Shown: one piece after another, positions 3,001 through 6,000 of the stretch
How the letters are laid out: every line of letters begins with the position of its first letter
How positions within the stretch are numbered: position 1 is the first letter of the stretch
Virus record (IMG/VR): IMGVR_UViG_2718218305_000004
Length of the DNA stretch: 49,695 nt
Origin: a virus
Taxonomy: Duplodnaviria; Heunggongvirae; Uroviricota; Caudoviricetes
Reading direction: 5' to 3' (one strand)
Position numbers: made by a program

Positions 3001-6000
3001 TTTCATTTTTTATCCTTAGTGAAAGAAAGACCCTTGTAAATGGCATAAATGCAGGGCGGGGTCAGAAACGCCAGTGCAAAGCCAGAAGTAACTGCTATCG
3101 TATCCTTCATGGATATAAGGAACGGAACGAGTAATCCGTAAATGCATGCGATAATTGCCAGTAAAATTACTATTGTGAAATACAGTCTCATTGGTATGTG
3201 GTATCCCGATATTTTTAACTGACAGACAGCGCAATAAAGAGAATAATGATTTCTGTTATTGTCAGTACTGTGGCAAGGATTAAAAGCAGTTTTACTCTGC
3301 TTAATTCACGGTTGTTTTTCATATAAATGGTTAGTAAAAAACGGAAGAATTATATTCTTCTTAATATTTAATGTGTCACTGGCCTTCTGGCATACCATGA
3401 GTATTCAGGTCGTTAATCATTTCATCCAGAAGGAGTTCAAGCCCTTCTCGCCCCATGTCTGAAACAATGAAACCTTTATCTGGGTATGTAATGAGCATTT
3501 TCTGATAAAGAAACAGCGCTCTACCCATTCCTTCTGCCTCGCCGTATTTTTGAATTAAATTCCATTCAATATACTGCTGTAAGGCAAACCGAATGGGGCC
3601 GGGATATATCGTCATAACCCCATGCTTCCCGTTATATATTACGGCGCGATCTGTTGTTCCGTGTTCATTCGGGACATCAATTGTGCCGTTCTTGTCTTCT
3701 TCTTCGTTGATGAATGTCGTCACATACAACCATCGCCACTGGGCAACCTTCATCTCAACCGGAAGTTTTCCCAGTAATCCTGCTTCGTCAGCTTGCGCGA
3801 GACACTGAAGGATACGTAAACCTCGCACATTAGGAGTATCGAATTCTCCAGCATCCAGACGGCGTATGGCGTCGTGATAATCAATAGTCATACTGCCTGT
3901 TTGTATACCATTGGCTGTTGCTTCAGCCTGGAATTCAGCGTATTGCATGAAATTTATTCCTCATCTTCATCTGCTGGTGCAATAACGTCATATCCTGCCT
4001 TTTCTGCAATAAACAGGAATGTTGAAAGATTTCTACAAATTCATCGTCATGAACATGACGAATTAATATTACTTTCCCGTTTTTGATGGTCAGCAATACT
4101 CTGGTTTGTTCGTGTTCTGCTGTTTTCTGATGCATTATTATCTCCCGTATGCTTTACGCAGAAACAAGCAGGCAATATGCATGTGATTTTTCCCGTGTTG
4201 TGCAATAAGGCAGGCTGTTTTGTGTGATGCCTTATGTTTTATAAAAGTCATAATAAAACCTCCTGTGGATTAAGTGTGTGATAATCCCCGGCGATTAAGC
4301 CGTAATATAGTATCTGGAGATGACTTGTTCTATTTAACTGGATAGTTCTTTTTCAGCTGCTGCTTCAGCATAGCAACGTGCAAATTCAAGAACTTCATCA
4401 CCTGTTCTTTTTATTGCGTCGTTGTCTGACATTTGTAATACGATAACTGCGCATAATAAATTATGGATATTGTTTGCAAAGGAATCCGGTGCCAGGCATA
4501 AGCCTTCATACTTATCATGGATATTGCCAGTCATTGTTGCTGCTCCTTTGCTTCTGATTTTCCCGTTAACAACCACATCAGGTCACAATTAAGCGCACTG
4601 GCCAGTGGTACTATATGATCAGCAGGAACTTCACAGATGCCGCATTCCCAGTCGTTTATGGGGTCACTGTAGGTATGAATCATGCGGGCAAGATCAGATT
4701 CGGTTAATCCCAGCTTTGTACGGGCGCTTTTGATGCGTGCGCCAATACTTTCCGCATGGACTTCAGTCGTATTTACACGAATAGCTGACTCGCTGTTTTT
4801 TTCACTTAGTAGAGAAAGCGGATCGCATCCCAGGACGTTTGCCAGGGGGATAAGCATGCTGATGGTTGGCTCGAACTCTCCACTCTCCCATTGCAGAATA
4901 ATCTCTTCGTCAAGATCGAGTAGTCTGGCTAGTTCGGTAGTCGTCAAGCCGCAGGCTTCACGTTTGGTGCGTATGCAGGCTATCTTGTTGCCTGATCGGA
5001 TAGAATGTTGTTGTTTTGTCGATGCGATCGCTAAAGCATATTCATGAGTAAATTCTAGCACATCAAACCCAACCTCTTTTAATCGCGTATCATCTAGGAG
5101 GTTGAAGGTGCGAACAGCACTGAGCAGGTTTGCGATGGTTAATGCAAAAGAATCGAGATCTAAATCATCACATAAAACCTTGTTGTAAGTATTGAGGCTA
5201 CATGTTTTTGGTGTTGTTTGTAAGGCTTCCATATCATCACCATGCAATTCTAAGTTGAAGTTAATCAATATATAATTGATGGTGAGATATTATGTGTCAG
5301 GAAAACGACTGTCAATTAAAAATTGATAAACTTGATTTTTTTGTGATGGATGACCAATAATTTAATTTAAAATCAATAACTAACCAAATCTGTTGATATT
5401 GAATGGTACAGATGAGATTACTTTTGACTGGATATAGAGCAGCGCCATTCCCTCTTTTTCGATGCTCCATGGCTGATAGTTGGGATTGTCTGATAAGACC
5501 ATGATCTTGCTTCCAATTTTTTGAAGTCGTTTGACGTAACATTCGCCATCAAAGCAAAATGCATAAATGCCATCGCCGTCAAAGTAAGTTACTGTTTTAT
5601 CTAAAAACAGTAAGTCTCCCGGGGAGATTGTTGGGGCCATGCTGTCCCCTCTGGCGTTACCGATTTCTATGTTCTTGAATGCTCTGTTACCGACCAGGCG
5701 GCGGGCATATTCAGGATCAAGTTCTATTGAGCGTACTACATCAATTAGATCTCCCCGTACATGAGTTCCGTCGCCGCAACTGAATTCAACATCCAGTACA
5801 TTGAACACAACGCTGTCTTCTCTTGTATGGTGTTTTTCAGCTGAAGAGAATGTCGATGAGGCATCTTCACCCAAAAACCAGGATTGTGGATAACCACTAA
5901 TTACTGATAGCTGTGCAAGTTTATCGCTTCTGGGAAACGTCTTTCCTGTAGTCCAGTATTGTACTGATTGCGCGCTTACACCCAGCTTACGGGCTAGTTC

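Follow-up and report, generated by a model that had tools for sequence, protein, structure and literature searches.

Which genes take the place of N at the head of the leftward operon in a lambdoid prophage that lacks N? This question is raised by IMG/VR virus record IMGVR_UViG_2718218305_000004, a stretch of 49,695 nucleotides (referred to in its whole length as the window), in which the first gene leftward of the repressor gene cI codes for a 233-aa protein with two helix-turn-helix (HTH) domains (4531..5232, minus strand; the large gene). The next gene codes for a 66-aa protein (4334..4534, minus strand; the small gene) that is paralogous to only the N-terminal domain of the large protein. 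A previous reading of this locus from sequence alone (referred to below as the sequence-only reading) regarded this domain as a likely oligomerisation or sensor domain, and its free copy as part of a titration or dominant-negative switch. The comparisons reported here suggest that the pair may constitute a regulator and its co-translated modulator. No functional study of the two genes was found in the literature, either by accession or by topic.

The large open reading frame (ORF) is open over 4531..5268 (−), and its start is most likely the ATG at 5232, which is used by RefSeq/PGAP (WP_000387836) and by all homologues. Pfam analyses revealed the HTH_3 domain (PF01381) in two stretches of the protein, residues 87-138 and about 160-228 (E 1.9e-15, 57 bits compared to a cutoff of 23), and no match in the first 85 residues of the large protein nor in the small protein. 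The AlphaFold2 model, which was built with a 30-sequence alignment, predicts a disordered leader (residues 1-23), a hairpin of two helices (26-45 and 49-77, predicted local distance difference test (pLDDT) about 85), HTH1 (85-141), a disordered linker (144-159) and HTH2 (163-223), in a relative placement that is not confident (predicted template modelling score (pTM) 0.32). At the DNA level, a short beta turn followed by the two-helix hairpin spans 5002..5193 (codons 14-77), while the XRE-type domains HTH1 and HTH2 span 4804..4980 (codons 85-143) and 4549..4752 (codons 161-228), respectively, all on the minus strand. Pfam and AlphaFold thus bear out the architecture proposed before, an N-terminal domain of about 85 aa followed by two XRE HTH domains. 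Foldseek matched the model to 434 cI, P22 c2 and the SinR N-domain with target template modelling (TM) scores of 0.8-0.9; HTH2 resembles the DNA-binding domains of 434 cI and P22 c2, and the two HTH domains are paralogous to each other (z 18). Among PDB sequences, HTH1 matches best to an MBF1-like bridging factor (2mez, E 2.6e-6), not to a phage repressor. PHROG places the large protein in phrog_4836 (E 2.4e-92).

The small gene (RefSeq WP_000147364) runs from the ATG at 4534 to the TAA at 4336-4334. On the plus strand, TCAT at 4531-4534 holds both the stop TGA of the large gene (4533-4531) and the ATG of the small gene (4534-4532). This ATGA overlap (4531..4534, −), which the sequence-only reading had pointed out, is a signal of translational coupling; a Shine-Dalgarno motif AAGGAG can now be added to it, located inside the large gene 8 nt before the ATG (4543..4548, −). 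A consensus scan found no promoter-like site upstream of the small gene. Formal pairwise alignment showed significant similarity of the two products: by BLASTP, residues 27-70 of the large protein align with residues 17-60 of the small protein (21 of 44 identical, E 5e-9), that is, 48% identity where about 45% had been estimated by eye, and the Smith-Waterman score of 84 compares to 26.9 ± 4.5 in 2000 shuffles (z 12.7, 0/2000). The relationship is reciprocal in PHROG, where the small protein belongs to phrog_4587 (E 3.7e-36) and also matches phrog_4836 (E 2.4e-5), while the large protein matches phrog_4587 (E 9.5e-6). Structure prediction of both proteins yielded the same short beta turn and two-helix hairpin, which make up the whole of the small protein (helices 16-34 and 39-65, mean pLDDT 90.8, net charge −6). 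Of the 21 identities, 12 involve apolar residues (F, I, L, L, A, V, V, L, F, Y, A, A), so that conservation falls on the hydrophobic core. Helix 1 of the hairpin is 58-60% apolar, which exceeds what an isolated hairpin can bury and points to packing against another hairpin. The proposal of an oligomerisation or sensor domain agrees to this extent with the prediction, a two-helix hairpin being the shape that self-association modules usually take.

The genomic position of the pair is that of N in lambda. In the 147-nt spacer that separates the cI stop (5380) from the ATG of the large gene (5232), a consensus scan predicted a σ70 promoter resembling the leftward promoter PL (5287..5315, −), with a −35 element TTGACA (5315-5310), a 17-nt spacer and a −10 element TAATAT (5292-5287), matching the consensus at 10 of 12 positions. 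Because this leftward promoter lies between cI and the large gene, the pair is placed at the head of a predicted PL-type operon, in the first positions downstream of the promoter, where lambdoid phages carry N. Two palindromes of the form ATCAAT-N5-ATTGAT, both candidate operators, bracket the promoter and make up a larger 22-nt inverted repeat (5258-5279 / 5312-5333): repeat analysis located one just downstream of the −10 element (5264..5280; repeat families D7 and I1) and the other overlapping the −35 element (5311..5327). ATCAA(G/T) half-sites also occur in the spacer between cI and cro (6100-6200), a 26-nt stretch of which is 77% identical to 5326-5351. The same spacer contains direct repeats ATCAAGAATA(C/A), and the architecture of the putative leftward operators appears to differ from that of the rightward ones. 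In line with the sequence-only reading, which had recognised none, no N-like arginine-rich antiterminator is encoded here: none of the ORFs of the left arm matched an N family, and the window contains no boxA (CGCTCTTA; boxB was not searched). The large protein itself is ruled out as an N-like antiterminator by its acidity, its HTH domains, the lack of an arginine-rich motif and the lack of boxA. What it shares with lambda N is the place of the first gene downstream of PL and an N-terminal specificity determinant located in the immunity-linked mosaic block, which is also the case for N and nut of lambda, 21 and P22. Unlike N, the large protein is acidic (isoelectric point (pI) 4.75) and folded with HTH domains, and homology to N is ruled out.

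When homologues of the large protein were searched for, about 120 proteins of E. coli prophages were recovered. Their HTH1 core hardly varies, with 33 columns of alignment A1 being invariant, and the second HTH is optional, being missing in single-HTH relatives. In the N-terminal 60-90 residues, by contrast, at least nine types (A1-A3, B to I) that differ greatly from one another can be told apart, all of which show a pattern of two amphipathic helices and none of which has a Pfam family. The hairpin is likewise without a family model in Pfam, NCBIfam or PADLOC. An exhaustive profile search with the hairpin alone recovered only 31 clusters among 1.84 billion representatives, in which the hairpin stands free, follows an extension, or precedes one or two HTH domains. 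This wider family needed the exhaustive search, as nothing but near-identical sequences from E. coli came from a word-indexed search with the small protein. Scans of the GTDB species representatives with the small protein and with alignment A1 returned no true relatives, only two spurious HTH matches in metagenome-assembled genomes. Judged from these profile matches, the hairpin family is real and narrow, without a name or a curated family.

Fused and free hairpins occur together with great regularity. Of the 25 phage records in which the HTH core occurs, every one has one or more free hairpin genes directly downstream of the large-gene homologue, and a free hairpin gene is also present there in the eight metagenome or genome loci that were examined (8/8), including the distant loci L018 and L019. 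In five phage genomes and these eight loci the gene order is kept: the repressor gene comes first, then the hairpin-HTH gene, from one to three small genes, and two genes that code for 60-77 and 193 aa, respectively. Loci L009 and L014 have the same −3 overlap of large and small genes as the window, and in six further loci the gap between the large and the free gene ranges from −3 to +6 nt. The free hairpins come in three conserved forms, namely 'a', which is the 66-aa form of the window, the phiP27 L08 type (121 aa, an N-terminal extension followed by an a-like hairpin) and the pair s1 + s2 (63 aa each). Consistent with the second form, the hairpin of the small protein matches the C-terminal half of phrog_5451, which is phiP27 L08 (1.7e-18). 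Each free form has fused relatives (a with A, 8e-11; s1 with C, 7e-9; s2 with E, 6e-10). The single-HTH relatives (phiP27 L10, phi467 'DicA' and type I) contain no candidate for a dimerisation element besides the hairpin. Some loci carry further small ORFs at this position. In phiP27 (locus L005, NC_003356.1), an unannotated 80-aa ORF at 2252-2494 (+) forms an ATGA overlap with the stop of L10, as in the window; no similarity of this ORF to any of the hairpin types was detected. The loci L007 (phi467; 3419-3798), L016 (4461-4840) and L019 (5592-5968) have two or three free ORFs in tandem, which are 61-64 aa long and some of which overlap by 4 nt; s1 and s2 of phi467 resemble the fused types C and E, while s2 and s3 of L019 have no significant similarity to any hairpin type.

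This regularity bears on one explanation of the paralogy, that it is a relic, with the small gene being a cassette that was duplicated or recombined, has no functional link to the large protein and is kept only by synteny. Free and fused types do assort independently and recombination breakpoints flank the hairpin (see below), as a relic would have it. However, the ORF of the free hairpin is intact in every one of the 25 phage records, with coupling or very short gaps conserved, its fold is predicted very confidently, and matched pairs of fused and free hairpins recur in two subtypes. Compared to its phiP27-type copy, the small gene is moreover under purifying selection (pN 0.31 and pS 0.68, pN/pS about 0.45, dN/dS about 0.2). 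We regard a relic as improbable.

We favor, tentatively and at somewhat less than an even chance, a modulation of the large protein by the small protein through mixed bundles, in the manner of SinR/SinI. The pair would be an immediate-early, PL-proximal two-gene module of a lambdoid prophage without N. The N-terminal hairpin of the large protein would serve as its self-association module, packing hairpin on hairpin into a four-helix bundle, and the small protein, which is the hairpin alone, would be made from the same transcript by coupled translation and enter mixed four-helix bundles with the large protein. Such mixed bundles would set the share of the large protein that is in the homo-oligomeric, active form, and may thereby affect DNA binding or transcription at the putative target of the HTH domains. 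The paralogy, the common fold, the lack of any other candidate dimerisation element in the single-HTH relatives, the coupling signals, the co-occurrence, the recurring matched pairs and the fused relatives of each free type all argue for this model. Its logic would be that of SinR/SinI, AimC/AimX and eukaryotic microProteins, hard-wired in stoichiometry instead of being signalled separately.

The SinR/SinI system is a direct precedent for a titration or dominant-negative pair (PMC3163267). In SinR/SinI, as in SlrR/SlrA, also of Bacillus subtilis, a lambda-type XRE protein contains a two-helix oligomerisation module, the adjacent small protein is paralogous to this module only, and an apolar core is conserved; the present pair shares these three features, the fold being predicted. 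The differences are considerable. The module is N-terminal here and C-terminal in SinR, and its helices are 19 and 27 residues long compared to the short hooks of SinR/SinI. The large protein has two HTH domains, both acidic, it is encoded in the PL operon of an E. coli phage, and its interaction with the small protein is a supposition. The small gene is located downstream and coupled, whereas sinI is under its own Spo0A control. A search of the PDB sequences with a hairpin profile (alignment A3) returned no chain at E≤1, and hence no sequence relationship to SinR/SinI. The pair is SinR/SinI-like on paper and is not a member of the SinR/SinI family.

A second parallel comes from the arbitrium phages of Bacillus, in which AimX binds the oligomerisation domain of AimC, blocks oligomerisation as well as DNA binding, and decides between lysis and lysogeny (bioRxiv 10.1101/2025.11.23.689978). 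In both systems a small phage protein faces the oligomerisation domain, here putative, of an HTH regulator, which in the case of AimC has a single HTH. Unlike the small protein, AimX has three helices, is not a paralog of the AimC domain and is regulated separately by AimR; moreover, AimC is the prophage repressor, whereas a separate S24-type cI is present here.

Four sets of observations weigh against this SinR/SinI-like modulation, and the first concerns the HTH domains themselves. The large protein is strongly acidic (net −14), and the pI of HTH1 is 4.2 and that of HTH2 4.85, compared to near 10 for the DNA-binding domains of 434 cI, P22 c2 and the phage's own cI. In a HMMER alignment to P22 c2, residues S31-N32-V33, the first positions of the recognition helix and presumably those that contact bases, correspond to D108-E109-E110 of HTH1. 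In the family alignment D108 and E109 are invariant and E110 is nearly so; distant family members (P0145 and P0148) have ordinary recognition helices. With acidic HTH domains and D-E-E in HTH1, operator binding by the large protein is not assured, and the output that is modulated may not be operator binding. In the distant locus L018 (4001-4519; Logan SRR13494420), a D-like hairpin precedes a single fused HTH, and the S24-type cI of the same phage has a DNA-binding domain with 46% identity to this HTH (E 4e-17); the head of the PL operon there codes for a DNA-binding protein that is predicted to be cI-like and non-cleavable.

Second, no DNA motif common to the regions upstream of the gene was found across immunity types, despite the invariance of HTH1. 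The ATCAAT-N5-ATTGAT sites are specific to the immunity type of the window, and in other immunity types the region upstream of the homologous gene lacks them, which leaves unsupported the large protein as an autoregulator acting at these sites. Third, what makes SinI a switch is a separate input, and co-translation takes this input away here. Given co-transcription and translational coupling, the small protein would come built in, as a stoichiometric partner or damper, and would not be a switch with a signal of its own. Fourth, the type of the free hairpin is independent of the fused type of its neighbor: 'a' is found behind A1, B, E and F, the L08 type behind A2, B, C, D, G and H, and s1 + s2 behind A3 and I. 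From this independent assortment, an interaction specific to a protein's own domain would not be general, unless the bundles are promiscuous or the interaction has been lost in the mismatched phages. That the free gene is a copy of the 'own' domain, as previously stated, holds for the window (A1/a, 48%), for PhiR49_2 (A2/a2, 43-47%) and for the distant L019, in which the C-type fused hairpin matches the hairpin of its own downstream 121-aa protein (C'/C', 48%, E 9e-15), so that matched pairs occur in two different hairpin subtypes; elsewhere the free copy is often mismatched to its neighbor. The switch of the sequence-only reading is consequently plausible and partly supported but unproven, with the SinR/SinI and AimC/AimX precedents and the conserved apolar core on one side, and co-translation, mismatches and acidic HTH domains on the other.

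DNA identity of the window to Stx1a phages ends at 4964-4971, which corresponds to residues 87-90, the junction of hairpin and HTH1, indicating that the fused hairpin belongs to the immunity mosaic block. Its type tracks that of cI, as the cI proteins of three A-type phages are 88-94% identical and those of two B-type phages 94%, a co-variation that could result from physical linkage and not from function. Types D, F' and I have a common linker with different hairpins, so the hairpin must also have been exchanged as a cassette. Between the window and PhiR49_2, nonsynonymous divergence is 0.036 in cI, 0.085 in HTH1, 0.22 in the hairpin and 0.63 in the leader; by this measure the hairpin has diverged 6 times as far as cI and 2.6 times as far as HTH1, and, as synonymous sites are saturated (dS>1.5), only such relative dN values are informative in a test of positive selection on the hairpin.

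Hypervariability and cassette exchange of this kind would be expected if the hairpins were independent, fast-evolving acidic effectors acting on a third-party target, with the HTH moiety being a fused autoregulator, as in anti-CRISPR/Aca operons and Acr-Aca fusions. The target could come from the host, as a defence protein or one that binds nucleic acids, or it could be the repressor of the same or another phage, and hairpin-hairpin contact would not be needed. The divergence of the hairpin relative to cI and HTH1 fits such effectors, as do its acidity (net −4 to −8 for all free hairpins, pI 4.4-4.9 for the large proteins of the family), the one to three tandem free copies at an immediate-early position and the frequent mismatches of fused and free types. 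However, in PADLOC the large protein matched in its HTH region only and the small protein not at all, neither matched an anti-defence family, and no target is known. Low constraint on a simple hairpin, together with linkage to the immunity region, can explain the hypervariability as well, and since the candidate PL operators vary with immunity type while HTH1 is invariant, autoregulation by HTH1 at PL is unlikely. We consider effectors of this kind, the main rival to mixed bundles, unlikely.

The mismatched combinations also invite an explanation by cross-talk between prophages, in which the free hairpin would titrate matching fused regulators of co-resident or superinfecting lambdoid phages and the hypervariability of the fused hairpin would reflect escape from titration. 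The free types a, s1 and s2 have fused counterparts, usually in other phages, and phi467 carries a fused A3 hairpin together with free C-like and E-like copies. Moreover, the genomes of those E. coli that produce Shiga toxin (STEC) contain many lambdoid prophages and up to two copies of the region, and the fused hairpin is located within the immunity mosaic block. On the other hand, the free copies of the window, PhiR49_2 and L019 are closest to their own fused hairpins, which would amount to self-targeting, and linkage alone accounts for the co-variation with cI. Cross-talk thus appears improbable. In its fullest form, for which we see only a slim chance, the hairpins would be a combinatorial specificity code among lambdoid prophages, the fused ones defining self-association and the free ones titrating matching foreign regulators. 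Such a code would add to cI-operator immunity a separate layer of cross-immunity or anti-immunity at the protein level; the shuffling of cassettes would be driven by it, and it could bear on which Stx (Shiga toxin) prophage is induced in polylysogenic STEC.

The name given to the family of the large protein suggests yet another possibility. phrog_4836 is labelled 'CII-like regulator', and the phage has no recognisable cII or cIII, which would fit a large protein that is an unstable regulator of lysogeny establishment with the hairpin as its degradation determinant; the free hairpin would then compete for a host protease and stabilise the large protein as CIII does CII. Co-expression fits a protector, and the same operon encodes an SPFH/Band_7 lipoprotein with weak similarity to HflK and HflC. 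However, the large protein has no homology to lambda CII or CIII (no Pfam match), the label is an unverified annotation, the gene is located left of cI and not right of cro, and nothing indicates proteolysis. A protease decoy therefore seems very unlikely.

Several known systems were compared with the large protein and rejected as its identity. A true CII homologue is ruled out, since no CII family is among the Pfam matches at E≤1, the gene lies left of cI and the PHROG label stands alone. A cleavable CI/LexA-type repressor is ruled out because the large protein has no Peptidase_S24 match while the neighboring cI has one. DicA (NCBIfam NF007257) is ruled out at 61.7 bits compared to a cutoff of 101. 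Wmk of the Wolbachia phage WO resembles the large protein in having two tandem XRE domains, with a weak NCBIfam match (E 6e-11) under a curated cutoff of 300 bits that is far above it; unlike the present pair, neither the Wmk nor the DicA family includes a hairpin or a free paralog. phrog_4836 and phrog_4587, to which the pair belongs, and phrog_5451, the last two of unknown function, provide labels only, as do phiP27 L10 and L08.

The window is a long-tailed Stx2a prophage. The 2.3-kb stretch around the pair is 100% identical to that of the long-tailed Stx2a-converting phage Stx2_EH2201 (LC567829.1) and to prophages of E. coli O111:H- 11128, O145:H28 RM13516 and several O157/O26/O103 strains, and among 5426 complete E. 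coli genomes 157 carry related DNA. The toxin yield of long-tailed Stx2a phages that have this early region is lower than that of short-tailed ones, a difference that a 2024 study credits to the distinct, undissected early region (PMC11333237). In this early region, an uncharacterised pair without a curated family replaces N at the head of the predicted PL operon. If the hairpin-mediated relation of regulator and modulator that we favor is real, the pair would be a Gram-negative phage counterpart of SinR/SinI and could be a lever on induction and Shiga-toxin output. The combination of a hypervariable, cassette-like fused hairpin with conserved free copies raises the question of cross-talk between co-resident prophages. 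Papers on non-lambdoid Stx phages report that N, cII and cIII are missing in some types and leave the genes left of cI undiscussed.

In the Stx2_EH2201 record the order from right to left is a cro-like gene, cI, a 'transcriptional regulator' and a run of small hypothetical genes, followed further left by genes for a 190-aa protein (phrog_1515), a 62-aa membrane protein, the SPFH lipoprotein, a DUF5406 protein, excisionase and integrase. The right side carries the Q antiterminator gene, stx2AB, lysis genes and lambda-like long-tail genes. In the window, cI codes for an S24 peptidase and HTH protein according to Pfam (5380-6069/6099, −). Its start is ambiguous, as the longest ORF begins at the ATG at 6099 (239 aa) while both annotations, as well as the relatives, use the ATG at 6069 (229 aa, MKNVKST...). 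Right of the cro-like gene are genes for a Rha-family protein (6505-7248, +) and an Ash-family protein (7357-8019, +); Rha beside the cI/cro region places the phage among the 'Eru' types (PMC8951638). The lambda O and P genes are absent, and genes for a replication-initiator-like protein, an ATPase and a DnaB-type helicase are present instead.

Leftward of the pair, the SPFH/Band_7 lipoprotein gene (2179-3006, −; phrog_200) has weak similarity to HflC (E 3.5e-5) and HflK (5e-4), far below the cutoff; HflC and HflK are modulators of FtsH. Upstream of it, with a 4-nt overlap, lies the gene for the 62-aa membrane protein (3003-3191, −; phrog_1130), and both genes belong to the PL operon of a phage without cII and cIII. 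Between these genes and the pair, a 66-aa ORF at 3935-4135 (−), assigned to phrog_340, is frameshifted compared to the intact 60-77-aa homologues of related phages, with which it shares MHQKTAEHEQTRVLLTIKNGKVI... and which then run on to ...VGSLSTFLFIAEKAGYDVIAPADEDEE; RefSeq annotates it as a frameshifted pseudogene in O111 11128.

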